DNA of 64,000 nucleotides from Caulobacterales bacterium (lineage in GTDB: Bacteria; Pseudomonadota; Alphaproteobacteria; Caulobacterales; Caulobacteraceae): the NCBI GenBank assembly GCA_044445825.1, contig JBIOEG010000003.1:7267-71266 (forward strand), given 5' to 3'. A program made the translations under genes and the position numbers. Shown here piece by piece: positions 4,956-34,857 of the stretch. How positions within the stretch are numbered: the stretch's first letter is position 1; the number at the start of each line of letters is the position of its first letter. Under the pieces are notes generated by a model. The model did no database searches. It saw nothing but the letters and a program-made list of their open reading frames with translations, and was not told where the DNA came from.

Positions 4956-6437
4956 TCACTTCAGCACCGCCTGATAGCCGGCCACCAAGTGGTCGATGGC
5001 CGGGCCGGTGAGCTGGAAGATCAAATTGGGCTGCAGGCCCAGCACCACGGTGGCGACAATCAGCGGAGCGAAGATCAGCACCTCGCGCCGCTCCAGGTCG
5101 GCGATGGTCATCAGCGCGTTGTTGGTGATCTCCCCGAAGATCACCCGCCGGTAGAGCGGCAGGGCATAGACGGCCGACAGGATGACCCCGGTCGCGGCGA
5201 ACAAGGTGGTCCAGGTGGAGACGTTGTAGGTCCCGGTCAAGGTGAGGATCTCGCCCACGAAGCCGCTGGTGCCGGGCAGGCCCACATTGCCGAGGGTGAA
5301 CAGCATGAAGGTCGCCGCGTACCACGGCATGCGGTTCACCAGGCCGCCGTAGTAGGCGATCTCGCGGGTGTGCATGCGGTCGTAGACCACCCCGACGCAG
5401 AGGAACAGCGCCCCGGAGATCACCCCATGGCTGAGCATCTGGTAGAGCGCGCCCTGCTCGCCCACCACGTTGCCCGAGAAGATGCCCATGGTGACGAAGC
5501 CCATGTGGGCCACGGAGGAGTAGGCGATCAGCTTCTTGAAGTCGGTCTGCCGGAACGCCACCAGCGAGGTGTAGACGATGGCGATCACCGACAGGGCGAA
5601 GATCAGCGGCGTGAACTGATGGCTGGCCGCCGGGAAGATCGGCAGCGAAAAGCGCATGAAGCCGTAGCCGCCCATCTTCAGAAGGATGCCCGCCAGGATC
5701 ACCGAACCCGCCGTAGGAGCCTCCACGTGGGCGTCCGGCAGCCAGGTGTGCACCGGCCACATGGGCATCTTCACCGCGAACGACGCGAAGAACGCCAGCC
5801 AGAGCCAGGTCTGCACGGCCGGGTCGAACCTGTAGGCCATCAGCGCGGGGATCGACGACGTATGGGCGACGGCGATCATGTAGAGGATCGCCGCCAGCAT
5901 CAGCACCGAGCCCAGCAGGGTGTAGAGGAAGAACTTGAAGGCCGCGTAGACCCGCCGCTGCCCGCCCCAGATGCCGATGATCAGGAACATCGGGATCAGC
6001 TGTCCTTCGAAGAACAGGTAGAAGACGATCAGGTCCAGGGCGCAGAACACCCCGATCACCAGGGTCTCCAGCGCCAGGAAGGCGATCATGTATTCGAGCA
6101 CCCGCTCGTTGATCGTCTTCCAGCTGGCGATAATGCAAAGCGGCATCAGGAACGCGGTCAGCAGCACGAACAGGACCGAGATCCCGTCGACGCCCATGCG
6201 GTAGTGCAGGCCGGCGAACCAGGGCGCCTCCTCCTGGAACTGGAATCCCGCGCTGCTCCCGTCGAACTCGGCGACCAGCAGGATCGACAGCGCGAAAGTG
6301 GCGAGAGTGACGACGAGGGTGATCCAGCGCGCGGCGCTGGCGGCCTGCGCGTCGTGACCGGGCCGCGCCAGCCGCAGGATCAGGATCGCGGCGACTCCGA
6401 CCATCGGCAGGAAGGTGACGAGGCTCAGAATGCCCAT
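4956..6437 (-). CDS. nuoM: NADH-quinone oxidoreductase subunit M
   Basis: [20 protein letters not shown] and [13 protein letters not shown]. Confidence 0.97.
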
Positions 6438-6440
6438 GGC

Positions 6441-8462
6441 TCAGCGCGCTCCCTGCGAGAAGGACCACAGGGTGTAGGAGAGCAAGGCGGCGACGCCGAG
6501 AAGCATCACGAAGGCGTAGTGGTAGACGTAACCGGTCTGCGCCCGGCTGAAGATGCGCCGGCCGGCGGCGTAGGAGGCGGCGCTCACCCCGTCCGGGCCT
6601 AGCCCGTCGATGACCCTCTCGTCGCCGCCCTTCCAGAACAGGTCGCCCAGCCACCGCGCCAGGCGCACGAAGGTCGCGTCATAGAGCTCGTCGAAATACC
6701 ATTTTTTGTACAGGAACATCCACACCGGGCCCCGGCGGGCGGCGATCCGGGCGCCGAGGCCCTCGTTGAGGATGTAGGACCAGTAAGCTGCGCCGAAGCC
6801 GATCGTGGTGATCACCAGCGGGCCGAACACCACCCAGGTCGGCAGGCCCGCCTCTACGCCCGCGCCGCCCTTGGCGACGAGATGGAAGATCGCGCCGCGC
6901 CAGAACCCCGTACGGCCCTCGCCGACGAAGATCTCGTGGAAGGCGTAGCCGGAGGCCGCGGCCCCCAGGGCCAGGACCAGCAGCGGAACCAGCATCACCC
7001 AGGGGCTCTCATGCGGCGTGACGGCATGATGGCCGTGGGCCTCATGGTTGTCGGCGCGCCCGTGGTCCGCGTCGGCCCACTTCGGCGTCCCGTGGAAGGT
7101 CATGAAGATCAGCCGCCAGGAGTAGAACGACGTCAGGCCGGCGGCCAGAAGGCCGATGACGAAGGCGAAATATGCGACGCCGCTGTGCTGGCCGGCCAGA
7201 TAGGCCGCGTCGATGATCGCGTCCTTGGAATAAAAGCCGGCGAAACCGAGCTCTAAGCCTGGAATACCAACGCCGGTGATCGCCAGGGTGCCGATCAGCA
7301 TCACCGCATAGGTGACCGGCAGCTTCTTCCAAAGGCCGCCCATGGCCCGCATGTCCTGCTCGTGGTGCATGGCGACGATCACGCTGCCGGCGCCCAGGAA
7401 CAGCAGGGCCTTGAAGAAGGCGTGGGTGAACAGGTGGAACATCGAGGCCTGGTAGGCCCCCACCCCGGCGGCGAAGAACATGTAGCCCAGCTGCGAACAG
7501 GTCGAATAGGCGATCACCCGCTTGATGTCGTTCTGCGCCAGACCCACCGTCGCGGCGAACAGCGCCGTGACCGCGCCGACGACGGTGACGATCGCCTTGG
7601 CGTCCGGCGCATATTCGAACATCGGCGACAGCAGGCAGACCATGTAGACGCCCGCGGTCACCATGGTCGCCGCGTGGATCAGGGCCGAGACAGGTGTCGG
7701 GCCTTCCATGGCGTCGGGCAGCCAGGTGTGCAGCAGGAACTGGGCGGACTTGCCCATGGCGCCCACGAACAGCAGGGCGCAGGCCAGGTCCATGCCGTTG
7801 AAACTGTGGCCGGCGAACAGCCACGCCTGGTGTGCGTGAGCCGGAACCTGCGGGAAGATCTCGGCGAAGCGGATGGATCCAAACATCCAGAAGGTGGTGA
7901 TGATGCCGAGCGCGAAGCCGAAGTCGCCTATCCGGTTGACCACGAACGCCTTGATCGCCGCGGCGTTGGCCGTGGGCCGCTTGTACCAGAAGCCGATCAG
8001 GAGGTAGCTCGCCACGCCGACGCCTTCCCAGCCGAAGAACAGCTGCATGAAGTCGGAGGCGGTCACCAGGGCCAGCATGGCGAAGGTGAAGAACGAGAGG
8101 AAGCTGAAGAACCGAGGCTTGCAGTCGTCCTCGGCCATGTAGCCCCAGCTGTACAGGTGCACGAGCGCCGAGACGGTGGTCACCACCACCATCATCACGC
8201 CTGAGAGGGTGTCGATGCGCACGCTCCAGAAGGACTGGAACTTGCCGACGTTGATGAAGGGCGCGACGACCGTGGTGAAATGCCAGTCGCCGGTCATCAC
8301 GTGCCGGAATGTGATCCAGGCCAGAATGCTCGAGACGAACAGCAGGCCCGTGGTCACGCCCATGGAGATGCGGTCACCAATACGGCGGCCAAAGAAGCCG
8401 GCGATCAGAGCGCCCAGCAGCGGCAGCAGGACGAGTGCGGTGACGAGGACCTGAGGGCTCAA
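6441..8462 (-). CDS. nuoL: NADH-quinone oxidoreductase subunit L
   Basis: GKSAQFLLHTWLPDAMEGPTPVSALIHAATMV; probable TTG start at 8462 with a GAGG Shine-Dalgarno (ORF track extends to 8510). Confidence 0.97.
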   Translation of the reverse strand: MSPQVLVTALVLLPLLGALIAGFFGRRIGDRISMGVTTGLLFVSSILAWITFRHVMTGDWHFTTVVAPFINVGKFQSFWSVRIDTLSGVMMVVVTTVSALVHLYSWGYMAEDDCKPRFFSFLSFFTFAMLALVTASDFMQLFFGWEGVGVASYLLIGFWYKRPTANAAAIKAFVVNRIGDFGFALGIITTFWMFGSIRFAEIFPQVPAHAHQAWLFAGHSFNGMDLACALLFVGAMGKSAQFLLHTWLPDAMEGPTPVSALIHAATMVTAGVYMVCLLSPMFEYAPDAKAIVTVVGAVTALFAATVGLAQNDIKRVIAYSTCSQLGYMFFAAGVGAYQASMFHLFTHAFFKALLFLGAGSVIVAMHHEQDMRAMGGLWKKLPVTYAVMLIGTLAITGVGIPGLELGFAGFYSKDAIIDAAYLAGQHSGVAYFAFVIGLLAAGLTSFYSWRLIFMTFHGTPKWADADHGRADNHEAHGHHAVTPHESPWVMLVPLLVLALGAAASGYAFHEIFVGEGRTGFWRGAIFHLVAKGGAGVEAGLPTWVVFGPLVITTIGFGAAYWSYILNEGLGARIAARRGPVWMFLYKKWYFDELYDATFVRLARWLGDLFWKGGDERVIDGLGPDGVSAASYAAGRRIFSRAQTGYVYHYAFVMLLGVAALLSYTLWSFSQGAR

Positions 8463-32792: not shown

Positions 32793-32875
32793 CTGTCGGC
32801 GCGGCGGCGCGCGAACATGCCTGGCGCCGCGAGCCCTCCCCGCCTAGCTTGGCCGCCGGTCATCGGGGGATACGC

Positions 32876-33379
32876 ATGCGCCGACGCGTGGCGATGGTGC
32901 TGACCGCGGCGCTGCTGGCCGTCGCCGCCTGTTCGGTTCCGCCGATGAAGGAGTACGCCTACCCTCGCTGGGGCTTCGCGGTCTCGCTGCGCGCGGCGCC
33001 GCGCGTGACCGAGCGGGCGGCGTCGACCACTCCGACGCTGGCCGCCGCGATCAAGGTGCAGCTGTCCCAGGCCGGCCGGGTCTATACGGCCACGGCCTCC
33101 GACATCTCGACCTACACGGGCGGCGATGAGACCATGCTGGGCATGGTTCCGCGCGCCATGGCGGGCGCCGACGGCGCGGTGAGCACGGTGACCTATGTCG
33201 CCACCGGCAAGGTGGTGGGACGCGAGGCGATCGTCGAGCGGAAGGGCCAGGACAGGCAGCGGGTGCGGGTCTTTGTGCAGGGCAAGCGGCTCTACTCGAT
33301 CAGCGCCCAGTCCGTGCTCGGGCCGGACGATCCCGAGGTGACGGAGTTCCTGGACTCGTTCCGGCTGCTGGGCGGCTAG
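32876..33379 (+). CDS. Hypothetical lipoprotein
   Basis: MRRRVAMVLTAALLAVAAC lipobox; C-terminal FLDSFRL. Confidence 0.75.
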   Translation: MRRRVAMVLTAALLAVAACSVPPMKEYAYPRWGFAVSLRAAPRVTERAASTTPTLAAAIKVQLSQAGRVYTATASDISTYTGGDETMLGMVPRAMAGADGAVSTVTYVATGKVVGREAIVERKGQDRQRVRVFVQGKRLYSISAQSVLGPDDPEVTEFLDSFRLLGG

Positions 33380-33589
33380 GCTGGCGGGGGCGCCGACGAA
33401 GGGGAACCACGAAAAGCACGAACGCGCGCTTTGTGTCGGCGGCGGTTCGGTAGGACGCCGGGCCCTGGCCAAATCAGCACGCAAATGGTGACGTGACGCG
33501 CCCGGCCCGCGGGCCGGCCCTGGTCTTTGACATCGTGAAACGAATAGCGCGCGGCCGGTCACCGGCCGGCGCACAGCCACGTTCCCGAT

Positions 33590-33722
33590 CCCCCAATCCG
33601 AAATTCCCCGCGCAAGCGGGGACCCAGGCTTTTTTCCATCGGTGGGGCCGCGCGATGGTGGGCGGAAGGAACAAACAAAAACGCCTGGGTCCCCGCTTGC
33701 GCGGGGAATTTCGGATTGGGGG
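33590..33722. repeat. REP/BIME-like long inverted repeat with 40-bp perfect arms
   Basis: 33590-33629 is the exact reverse complement of 33683-33722; each arm contains a CCCCGC-GCAA-GCGGGG hairpin. Confidence 0.85.
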
Positions 33723-33759
33723 TAGTGGGAAAGCCTGGGGTGGGACCCGGTCCCCGCCC

Positions 33760-33956
33760 CACCTGATCCGCACCTGTTATGCATCGATAACAGGCCTGTT
33801 TGGCGCCTGTTATCACCTGTTATCACCTGTTCCTGAGCGATATCAGGTGGCCGCAAGCCATTGAACAATCACGGCTTCCAGACCGTAACAGGTGGAAAAA
33901 ACCGTGAAATAACAGGTGGAACAGGTGAATAACAGGTCGGAACAGGTCGGAACGGG
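33760..33956. repeat. Polarised array of CCTGTT/AACAGG motifs
   Basis: Five CCTGTT and six AACAGG copies, many spaced 9-11 bp apart. Confidence 0.85.
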
Positions 33957-33975
33957 CGGCGCGGCGGGCGCGGGT

Positions 33976-34857
33976 TCACGTGCCCCAGTCCGGCCCCGAC
34001 ACCGTGGAGCTGTAGACGCCGAGCTCGCTCATCCGGCGAATGTCGGCGCCCTTGGAGAGGCCCCAGGGGCCCACGCGCAGGCCTAGGGCCCGGGCTTCGG
34101 CCATGGTCTGCTGCGTCACCTCGGTGTAGTGCGGCGACCACTCCACGCCGCCGTGGGCCCGGATGGCGCGCAGCTCGGAGCCGCCGTGGTCGGCGGCGTC
34201 GCAGCCGTCCGCCCAGGGCGAGCGGCCGTCCGGCCCCAGGCGGACGGTGGACCTGAGCGCGTCGGGGATGGTCAGGTGGGCGGTCCTGACGCCCGGGTGG
34301 CGCTCGCGCGAAAGCCGCAGCACCTGCCAGTCGAAGGCGATGATCTTGGCGTGATCGAGGTAGTCGGCCGCCTCCAGGTCGCGCAACACCGCGCCCACGA
34401 TCGCCGCCGGCGGCGGGGCGTGGCGCGGGTTCTGCGGATCGGTCTTGATCTCCACGTAGATCAGCCGCCGGGGGCCGCGCGCCGCGGCCAGCGCCGCCAG
34501 CAGCTCCGGCAGGGTCGGGATGCGGACTTGGTCCATCTGTTCGCGCTCGGGGCGCCGCGCCGCATCCTTCGAGCCCGGGCGGGAGCGTCCGACGTCGTAG
34601 AGGCGCAACTCGTCGAGGCTCAGGGTCTTCAGCGGCGCGGAGGGCGCATCCAGCCAGGCCTCGCCCAGGCGTGTCTGGTCCGGGCTCAGGCGGTAGTCGT
34701 GATGGGCGACCACGTGGCCGTCGGCGGTGAGCTGCACGTCGATCTCGACGCCGTCGACCGGCGCATCCAGGCAACGAAGCGCGCCCTCCAGGCTGTTCTC
34801 CGGCCAGACGCCATAGCCGGTGGCGCCGGCGATCAGCAGGGGCTTGGATTGCGGCAT
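33976..34857 (-). CDS. Glycerophosphodiester phosphodiesterase family protein
   Basis: PENSLE, EIDVQLTADG..V..HD, IPTL.E and EIKT. Confidence 0.88.
   Translation of the reverse strand: MPQSKPLLIAGATGYGVWPENSLEGALRCLDAPVDGVEIDVQLTADGHVVAHHDYRLSPDQTRLGEAWLDAPSAPLKTLSLDELRLYDVGRSRPGSKDAARRPEREQMDQVRIPTLPELLAALAAARGPRRLIYVEIKTDPQNPRHAPPPAAIVGAVLRDLEAADYLDHAKIIAFDWQVLRLSRERHPGVRTAHLTIPDALRSTVRLGPDGRSPWADGCDAADHGGSELRAIRAHGGVEWSPHYTEVTQQTMAEARALGLRVGPWGLSKGADIRRMSELGVYSSTVSGPDWGT

Follow-up and report, generated by a model that had tools for sequence, protein, structure and literature searches.

What kind of feature is a polarized, helically phased array of AACAGG and CCTGTT hexamers that lies between the 3' ends of two genes? 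We addressed this question for an array in a 64,000-nucleotide (nt) stretch of DNA from a Caulobacterales bacterium, which we refer to as the window. The window covers contig C3:7267-71266 of a draft genome (4.35 Mb, 68.8% G+C, 122 contigs), which we refer to as the source genome (G000). The original prediction, made from the letters of the window, placed the array at 33760-33956 and viewed it as a multi-site protein-loading platform or a structured noncoding RNA. The analysis presented here indicated that the array is one copy of a dispersed repeat, designated C, and that the boxes in C match the boxes in the arm of an integrative mini-element found in the same genome. On balance, we lean toward the reading that the array belongs to a lineage-specific, non-autonomous repeat family, which consists of amplified candidate boxes of the arm type or excisionase type.

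The array is one copy of a dispersed repeat family

A re-scan of the window reproduced exactly all five CCTGTT positions and all six AACAGG positions of the original prediction, including the inverted AACAGG at 33789 (Table 1). The proposed extended unit and its 9- to 11-bp spacing were also upheld, the unit being ATAACAGGTG/CACCTGTTAT, as was the convergent setting, in which a 176-amino-acid (aa) open reading frame (ORF) on the plus strand and a GDPD-family gene on the minus strand face each other. The surrounding patch had been described as AT rich, which holds only relative to a genome with 69% G+C. The array itself is real, but the extent assigned to it was too small; self-BLAST coverage indicated that 33400-33957 is repeat DNA throughout.

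A genome-wide scan for clustered arrays, which had been suggested as a check, detected more than 100 clusters of 170 to 190 bp each, in which CCTGTT boxes were followed by AACAGG boxes. Many of the clusters were at contig ends. When the draft genome was searched with a 196-position nhmmer profile built from 76 copies, ~118 nonoverlapping copies of C were detected. Because the array is repeated across the genome, a neutral slippage repeat was excluded. An iteron-like origin was not borne out either, as the copies are dispersed beside ordinary metabolic genes, and a nucleoid-organizing feature specific to this locus is difficult to reconcile with one copy of a lineage-restricted dispersed repeat. 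The array had also been said to fit no standard feature class; it does have a place, however, among the small, non-autonomous intergenic repeats of the kind represented by miniature inverted-repeat transposable elements (MITEs), repetitive extragenic palindromic (REP) sequences, and bacterial interspersed mosaic elements (BIMEs).

Each C copy consists of two inverted arms with five or six boxes apiece, arranged around an asymmetric center of ~55 bp. The arms differ from one another, since the left boxes are dispersed and the right boxes are packed, and the packed arm is oriented toward the gene end. In the copy at our locus, repeat-coverage analysis placed a sharp right boundary at ~33957. Approximately 1,300 phased boxes were counted across the genome, and a C-box matrix built from 877 boxes yielded the consensus (C)ATAACAGGTG(G). 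Start-to-start spacings of 9, 10, and 11 bp were observed in 130, 297, and 267 box pairs, respectively (694 in all), and the remaining spacings were mostly 22 to 24 bp. Pairwise identities between C copies were bimodal, with values of 85 to 95% in a young group and 60 to 70% in older groups, and no two copies were identical. The family also has a clear subfamily structure.

Conservation of the boxes in C

The boxes are the part of C that has changed least. Compared with the subfamily consensus, 64 young copies had diverged by 1.4% in the boxes (hexamer columns), 8.8% in the arm spacers, and 11.0% in the center (Fisher p = 4e-88); that is, the boxes diverged 6 to 8 times less than the spacers or the center, and the center was the least conserved part. 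With the exception of the outermost box, the left-arm boxes were intact in 59 to 64 of the 64 young copies. The contrast between the boxes and the rest of C came mainly from variants that were shared within sublineages, of which 42 were in boxes and 668 were elsewhere. Therefore, the lineages that went on propagating kept their boxes. Private mutations were also about two-fold rarer in the boxes (0.50% versus 0.97%; p = 0.004).

Conservation of this sort might be placed on a folded stem or on double-stranded DNA. Covariation, a check suggested in the original prediction, was not found in a consensus fold of 88 C copies; the 17 pairs in the fold were all within the invariant hexamers, and three compensatory cells were counted. 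The positions that flank the hexamers varied independently of one another, and the spacers that face each other in the fold were noncomplementary. In addition, no Rfam family was found for C, the only matches being spurious, microRNA-like matches to a neighboring module (B; see below), and the C copies contained no intrinsic-terminator or promoter consensus. Taken together, the lack of covariation, the noncomplementary spacers, and the lack of Rfam, promoter, and terminator signals argue that the constraint is on phased boxes in duplex DNA rather than on a stem. No consistent ORF was found in C.

The boxes match the arm of a tRNA-Ala integrative mini-element

The sequence CCTGTTAT occurred at six sites outside C copies in the source genome; one of these sites was in 23S rRNA and one was in a split C copy. 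Two others were 155 bp apart on contig C104, the only place in the source genome where a box array occurs outside C. The phased run at this place, GGCCTGATCCGCCCCTGTTAGCACCTGTTAT, is upstream of three co-oriented genes, which code for a 73-aa ORF (orf73), an 88-aa ORF (orf88), and a 431-aa tyrosine integrase of the P4 type that contains the domains Arm-DNA-bind_3 and Phage_integrase. The genes adjoin a truncated 5' half of a tRNA, and the whole mini-element is 2.5 kb in length and present as a single copy. The arm of the mini-element contains ATAACAGGTG, which is the C consensus, and its boxes scored 17 to 19 bits on the C-box matrix, compared to a median of 15.8 for the training boxes.

Similar elements were found elsewhere. 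A search of a protein collection identified one cluster of homologues of the 88-aa ORF (72% identity), and the contigs in this cluster hold the same three genes. In metagenome contigs, tRNA-Ala(CGC) is the insertion site of the homologous elements, which are flanked by a truncated tRNA copy at one end and by the intact tRNA gene at the other. An intact tRNA-Ala(CGC) gene was also observed elsewhere in the source genome. In one of these contigs (L116), all five WAACAGG matches found in the 12.3-kb locus were located within the 216-bp arm and on one strand, whereas 0.58 matches were expected. When the arms from G000, L116, and L119 were aligned, the conserved blocks proved to be AACAGG-type boxes that were ~11 to 12 bp apart.

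We detected the mini-element in only 1 of 120 genomes of the same family that were searched. This genome (G554) belongs to another genus, and its arm (L135) has the same box pairs and the same pattern as L116, with AACAGG-type boxes in a one-directional array. Only nine box pairs were found in the 3.6 Mb of G554, and none were found at three other P4-type integrase loci in the source genome. Therefore, the boxes belong to one element, and their amplification is specific to the source genome. One locus in G554 (L141, contig C60:1-1828) has a C-like two-arm layout 35 bp past the stop codon of a converging gene. The order at this locus is tRNA-Ser(CGA), an AT-rich stretch, the two-arm AACAGG/CCTGTT element, and the 3' end of a large serine recombinase gene. 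Either this locus marks the boundary of an island, or it is a lone C-like insertion; G554 has the mini-element but no amplification.

Distribution of C and of similar arrays

BLAST searches detected no copy of the C family in 24 genomes of the same genus-level group or in 16 genomes of the same order (0/40), and no 3-box arrays were found in four genomes of the same genus. In a sample of 400 genomes from across the class, 3-box CCTGTT arrays were as rare as arrays of a reversed-pattern control, a frequency that rules out a class-wide CCTGTT-binding host factor. Exact-pattern scans yielded no match to the 25-mer in a genome collection, and only chance matches in coding DNA in a metagenome collection. 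Given these absences from relatives, from the class sample, and from the collections, the C family is restricted to the source lineage.

The C repeat was not found downstream of the GDPD orthologues in four relatives. In one relative, the converging genes overlap at their stop codons; in others, unrelated hairpin repeats are located downstream of the GDPD orthologue. The orthologues are 60 to 70% identical and synteny has been lost, so the exact boundaries of the C insertion are unreadable from relatives.

Pattern scans also yielded CCTGTT-array families in other metagenome-assembled genomes (MAGs), with 129 arrays in MFD01872, 51 in MFD03346, 39 in a Caulobacteraceae MAG, and 29 in an Anaerolineae MAG. 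A polar two-arm layout was observed in MFD01872.bin.2.193 (L031 and L071), in the Caulobacteraceae MAG (L014, L020, and L024), at L063 and L075, and in the Anaerolineae MAG (L038 and L039), and the multicopy families in these other MAGs were often located directly past stop codons. MFD03346.bin.1.73, which is a 7.8-Mb genome, has a ~530-bp repeat (L010, L027, L032, L043, L073, and L074) that contains four copies of AACAGGGAAAT and, beside the AACAGGGAAAT array, a degenerate ORF fragment ending in ...DENDDYIILRWEG. This repeat had looked like a small ORF beside an array, a reading that was rejected because the 530-bp repeat is of another kind and its reading frames are broken. One protein common to all of the CCTGTT-array genomes was ruled out by the absence of orf73, orf88, and the integrase from these other genomes. 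We conclude that the other CCTGTT-array families are independent cases of a like architecture and do not constitute evidence for a common binder.

Proposed origin of C

Under the reading that we favor, the boxes are predicted to be double-stranded DNA sites for a protein of the mini-element. The candidate binders are the arm-binding domain of the integrase and a filament of a small Cox/Xis-like protein, in which one protomer would occupy each helical turn. Each C copy would be a nucleoprotein platform that resembles an attP arm; it would descend from an arm of this kind and would have been amplified afterward. Spread might have occurred via recombination that depends on the integrase or a recombination directionality factor (RDF), via co-mobilization with the REPIN-like module B by the single RAYT of the genome (see below), or via recombination between modules. 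The position next to stop codons might reflect targeting or, alternatively, selection for a 3'-end hairpin that is harmless or useful. As to what C contains, it has boxes that match those of the element and runs of at least four phased boxes, and it has no core crossover site. Of the readings in the original prediction, the recombination-directing, multi-site protein-loading platform has survived best, because the boxes are phased, are the most conserved part of C, and match an integrase-element arm; the idea of a singular locus has not survived.

Several observations weigh against the derivation of C from an integrase-element arm. Outside the boxes, no significant overall similarity was found between C and the arm, and the C profile did not match the arm contig. 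The core-type sites TTCGCAA, TCGTTCGCAA, and CGCAATGAGG were absent from the C consensus, which contained nothing like the tRNA-Ala crossover. C has no fixed termini, as its right terminus varies by one box between copies. In 32 copies with unique flanks, no direct repeat of 4 to 9 bp, as would be produced by target-site duplication, was found at a consistent offset (the best offset accounted for 3/32). Since there is no core site, no target duplication, and no defined ends, classical integrase-mediated insertion of C and DDE transposition are both unsupported. In the source genome, the mini-element (L009; 820-1445 and 3700-3900 of C104) is bordered at its arm by the truncated 5' half of tRNA-Ala, but no intact tRNA is present downstream of int, and this copy may be rearranged or decayed. 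The models of the two small proteins are of low confidence: the 73-aa ORF is modeled as three helices (predicted local distance difference test score [pLDDT], 64), and the model of the 88-aa ORF (pLDDT, 62) has top structural matches that are all winged-helix regulators but that are weak (E = 0.09 to 0.5). Beyond this weak, low-confidence winged-helix resemblance, the small ORFs showed no detectable homology to Cox/Xis proteins. Finally, to the above-noted absence of the three mini-element genes from the other CCTGTT-array genomes can be added that Arm-DNA-bind_3 integrases are absent from three of these genomes and, where such integrases are present, no arrays are nearby.

A bolder proposal, which we regard as rather unlikely when all of its steps are taken as one claim, is that C elements are an undescribed type of non-autonomous mobile DNA, namely, miniature "arm-only" satellites of a tyrosine-integrase element. 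The integrase arm domain and/or a Cox-like small protein would build a wrapped nucleoprotein complex on each copy, the copies would be made at sites past stop codons without a transposase or a canonical attB core, and the ~1,300 boxes would titrate integrase or excisionase and, in this way, set the excision frequency of the parent element.

The locus, its repeat mosaic, and the RAYT gene

The coordinates of C, of the neighboring genes and repeat modules, and of the mini-element in contig L116 are listed in Table 1. At our locus, the right arm of C ends 19 bp short of the stop codon of the converging GDPD gene. In the window, AACAGG and CCTGTT were found 51 times, compared to 16.9 +/- 4.1 times in dinucleotide-preserving shuffles (n = 100), and a count of 51 was reached in 0/100 shuffles. 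When the 11 hexamers in the C copy are subtracted, ~40 are left in the 64,000-nt window versus ~17 expected. These are mostly in coding regions, and the residual excess is probably a codon or dipeptide effect.

Table 1. Coordinates and properties of features at the array locus (window positions) and in mini-element contig L116 (contig positions)
Feature	Position	Strand	Basis or description
C module, 196-bp dispersed repeat with the reported array	33756..33957	+	nhmmer profile, ~118 hits
C left arm	33759..33831	-	CCTGTT-type boxes at 33762 (degenerate CCTGAT), 33773, 33795, 33806, 33816, and 33826; inverted box at 33789
C center, asymmetric	33832..33886	+	Degenerate box ATCAGGTGG at 33842; small TGGC-CGCAA-GCCA dyad
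C right arm	33887..33957	+	AACAGG boxes at 33887, 33911, 33920, 33931, and 33941; degenerate terminal AACGGG
Glycerophosphodiester phosphodiesterase gene	33976..34857	-	Pfam GDPD, E = 1.1e-20; stop codon adjoins C right arm
176-aa ORF, converging	32849..33379	+	No Pfam family; stop ~20 bp ahead of A1 module
A1 module	33400..33461	+	Short tandem CACGAA-type array with 2- to 3-nt spacers; ~29 copies
A2 module	33462..33589	+	Motif M plus two G+C-rich hairpins; ~58 BLAST-detectable copies
Motif M (TCTTTGACATCGTGAA) in A2	33524-33539		Conserved; also given as CTCTTT[GC][AT]CATCGTGAA
B module, REPIN-like hairpin	33590..33722	.	46-nt arms, 98% complementary; 41-nt loop; ~115 copies
L116, truncated tRNA 5' half with promoter	5226-5262		First in contig order
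L116, AT-rich stretch			Second in contig order
L116, box array	5399-5614		Third in contig order
L116, orf73, orf94, int			After the box array, in this order
L116, intact tRNA	7780-7855		Last in contig order

The modules that precede C always occur in the order A1-A2-B-C. The loci were distributed as follows: 29 with B only, 45 with C only (many of which are at contig ends), 32 with B-C, 21 with A2-B-C, and 10 with A1-A2-B-C. Motif M was located upstream of most of the C copies that were checked, at a distance of 40 to 100 bp when B was absent and 220 to 260 bp when B was present. This dependence on B indicates that the ancestral unit was the motif plus C and that B was inserted later. Two further ideas about motif M were rejected: it is not the start of a small gene, as reading frames break between copies, and motif M/A2 is not a relic of the mini-element promoter, as the similarity score was no better than that of shuffles.

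Each arm of B contains a TCCCCGC-GCAA-GCGGGGA mini-hairpin. The source genome has a single gene for a REP-associated tyrosine transposase (RAYT; Y1_Tnp), which is located at 37.4-38.06 kb on contig C12. The region around this gene (C12:37250-38320) has its own REPIN, a hairpin formed by two REP sequences, on both sides (AATTTCGGGGACACAATACTTAATTGAC ... GTCAATTAAGTATTGTGTCCCCGAAATT; 14 to 17 copies), and a CTTCGTG tandem array of ~28 copies adjoins the locus. B has GGGGAATTTCGG in common with the RAYT-flanking REPINs, and therefore we consider B to be a REPIN-like element. A RAYT gene flanked by C was not found; the sole Y1_Tnp gene has a different REPIN, whose common motif is with B only.

Additional hairpins were observed in and around the mosaic. 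An extra module, CCCCGGATAAGGCCTGCGGCCTTTCCGGGGTGAC, which is a REP-like hairpin, is often found ahead of A1 (e.g., on contigs C6, C14, and C18 of the source genome), and a similar hairpin, GTCATCCCGGA...TCCGGGATGAC, was found in the relative G001 (L102). In the relative G045 (L101, about 1360-1460), an inverted pair of CACGAACCA arrays is located downstream of the orthologous GDPD gene. Given that A1 is itself a CACGAA array, array-armed hairpins of differing units recur in the bacterial family.

This setting raises the alternative that C is an ordinary REP/BIME-type hairpin, which would act as single-stranded DNA or RNA, serve as a 3'-end stabilizer or terminator, and be mobilized by the RAYT together with B; the boxes would then be no more than units from which the stem is built, and the match to the integrase arm would be a coincidence. 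We view this alternative as possible but doubtful. It fits with the strong, long hairpin that was predicted for C on both strands (z = -7.8 and -6.8), with the fixed mosaic that C forms with the REPIN-like B, and with the one RAYT gene whose flanking REPINs resemble B. The youngest and largest C subfamily is the B-containing unit, the copies are directly past stop codons and mostly in convergent gaps, as REPs are, and the lack of target-site duplication is expected of HUH transposition. However, the consensus fold consists of invariant hexamers only and shows no compensatory changes, and the spacers of paired boxes, besides being noncomplementary, diverge 6 times faster than the boxes. Strict phasing at 9 to 11 bp is a property of duplex DNA and not of a stem, and the boxes are one-directional, and hence incapable of forming a hairpin, in integrative-element arms from three sources. 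Nor do the C copies have the terminator or promoter consensus noted above or the replication-strand bias that is expected for transposition of lagging-strand single-stranded DNA. In short, C is part of an extragenic, post-stop mosaic like those of REP/REPIN/BIME elements, and neither a cognate RAYT nor a selected stem was found.

Placement of C copies and possible host roles

The stop codon of a converging gene was within 60 bp of the last AACAGG box in 81 of 104 C copies, and the right flank at 61 internal loci was a gene 3' end in 47 cases and a 5' end in 14. The end of the AACAGG arm was separated from the converging stop codon by a median of ~9 bp, with many copies at 3 to 12 bp. On the left side of the mosaic, the distances to gene ends were broad. 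TAG stops, especially CTAG, were overrepresented at the right end of C. CTAG was ~25-fold enriched within 20 nt of this end, and CTAG-type stops accounted for 32 of the 81 stops next to C, compared to an expectation of ~15% (~2.6-fold). CTAG was ruled out as a target or duplication, as there was no matching enrichment on the left and the CTAG on the right was part of stop codons.

The orientation of C was concordant with local GC skew in 84 of 104 copies (p = 3e-10). The replication polarity that this might suggest is an artifact; the skew was confined to 0 to 4 kb rightward, which corresponds to the converging neighbor gene, and was nil beyond 6 kb. The correlation arises because the coding strand of the neighboring converging gene is rich in cytosine. 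Coding strands in the source genome are cytosine rich in general, the orientation of genes agrees with local GC skew in only 47% of cases, and the top-strand skew is positive over minus-strand genes. Therefore, local GC skew is a poor proxy for replication in this draft genome. An AT-rich stretch on contig C62 (13480-13580) holds CCTGTTATCCACAG, including a perfect TTATCCACA DnaA box, and may be near oriC or the dnaA promoter.

Might the arrays serve the host? They could be chromosome-wide docking sites for a nucleoid or regulatory protein, roadblocks where convergent genes end, or sites that titrate integrase or excisionase, with selection acting locus by locus. This possibility, which is the closest to the idea in the original prediction, would account for the consistent placement at gene ends and for the two-fold depletion of private mutations in the boxes, and ~1,300 phased boxes would represent a large titration capacity. 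Still, we consider it unlikely. The C family is absent from every relative that was examined and therefore cannot represent an established host system; its subfamily structure and identities of 85 to 95% are typical of recent selfish amplification; and C orientation does not follow replication after correction for the composition of the neighboring gene.

Transposon and RNA alternatives

C could also be a classical MITE of a DDE transposon with multiple transposase sites (Tn7-, Mu-, or IS21-like) whose partner is missing from the draft. Since many contigs are interrupted within the repeat, the draft could have lost a multicopy partner, and the box conservation that is mostly carried by shared lineage variants is what a requirement for mobilization would produce. 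The inverted arms are also suggestive; their boxes are dispersed on the left but packed on the right, and the packed arm is turned toward the gene end, like Tn7-R at glmS. The variable right terminus and the lack of a 4- to 9-bp target-site duplication at any offset, however, argue against a MITE of this type, and no long C copy that encloses genes was found. No multicopy transposase was found either; only two IS1595-type genes turned up, without a search aimed at rve/TnsB. C is small, noncoding, multicopy, and equipped with inverted arms, as MITEs are, and it has no target-site duplication; overall, we judge a classical MITE to be quite improbable.

That C encodes a structured noncoding RNA, as the original prediction had allowed, is hardly credible: the very low predicted folding energy is in its favor, but both strands fold equally well, as would those of any inverted repeat, and the searches described above found no Rfam family, no covariation, and no promoter or terminator consensus.

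Significance of the box match

Small intergenic repeats with arms of phased short boxes recur past stop codons in many uncultured bacteria, and to our knowledge, the source or the trans-acting protein is known for almost none of them. The boxes of the high-copy C family match a conserved array in the arm of a single-copy element, which supplies concrete candidate binders, namely, the integrase arm domain and the two small ORFs, and the match is a testable lead on the origin of such repeats. If the predicted binding is true, recombination-site architecture could seed genome-wide repeat families, as transposon ends and REP hairpins do, and C-type families could in turn influence how the parent element is controlled. 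If it is false, the C family would be a well-characterized but ordinary REP/BIME-like repeat.

Comparison with known systems

The REP/REPIN/BIME mosaics of Proteobacteria and the rhizobium-specific intergenic mosaic elements (RIMEs) of rhizobia have been reviewed (PMC3184786), as have RAYTs (PMC5581495). Like C, the REP/REPIN/BIME elements are short, noncoding, high-copy, and strictly extragenic; they are located past stop codons, often in convergent gaps, and they form mosaics of fixed order. The single RAYT and the REPIN-like B of the source genome extend this likeness. C differs in that its arms are rows of five or six phased 10-bp boxes with noncomplementary spacers rather than a simple palindrome. 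It also lacks covariation and a RAYT flanked by C, and its boxes recur in one direction in an integrase arm.

MITEs with multiple subterminal transposase-binding sites and IR/DR (inverted-repeat/direct-repeat) elements have also been described (PMC5224488). Multi-site MITEs with Tn7- or Mu-type ends resemble C in being small, non-autonomous, and multicopy and in having inverted arms of repeated sites with asymmetric packing. In contrast to these MITEs, C was found to have neither a target-site duplication nor defined termini, and a DDE transposase cognate to it was not detected.

The attP arms of heterobivalent tyrosine integrases, of which lambda attP is a further example, are a third point of comparison. 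Such integrases read attP via arm motifs of 10 bases that flank the core on either side over ~280 bp, and the attP of ICEMlSymR7A, which is 283 bp in length, contains five 10-bp IntS arm motifs (PMC11963761). C is similar in total length (~200 bp) and has 10-bp boxes on both sides of a center, and the C boxes match the arm of an element whose integrase has an Arm-DNA-bind_3 domain. Unlike attP, C has no core or overlap that matches the tRNA-Ala attB, and it is present as ~118 dispersed copies, none of which is beside an integrase gene. The C boxes are also more numerous and more regularly phased than the boxes in known attP sites.

Arrays bound by Cox, Apl, and Xis proteins provide the last comparison. 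The P2 Cox protein, which forms a winged-helix filament, recognizes at least six 9-bp cox-boxes that are 10 to 11 bp apart from start to start, and more than four boxes are required for it to bend DNA (PMC3936717). Like the C boxes, these arrays contain at least five short boxes in variable direction, with one box for each helical turn, and it is via such arrays that winged-helix excisionases of the Cox/Apl/Xis type bind DNA and wrap it. They are located in or near the attP arm, upstream of the element's own small genes, as are the boxes of the mini-element. A difference is that the small ORFs of the mini-element lack detectable Cox/Xis homology, and we know of no Cox array that has been amplified across a chromosome. 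When placed beside these systems, C is a lineage-specific addition to the broad class of small intergenic repeats, and its unusual trait is a building block that matches the arm of a tyrosine-integrase mini-element.

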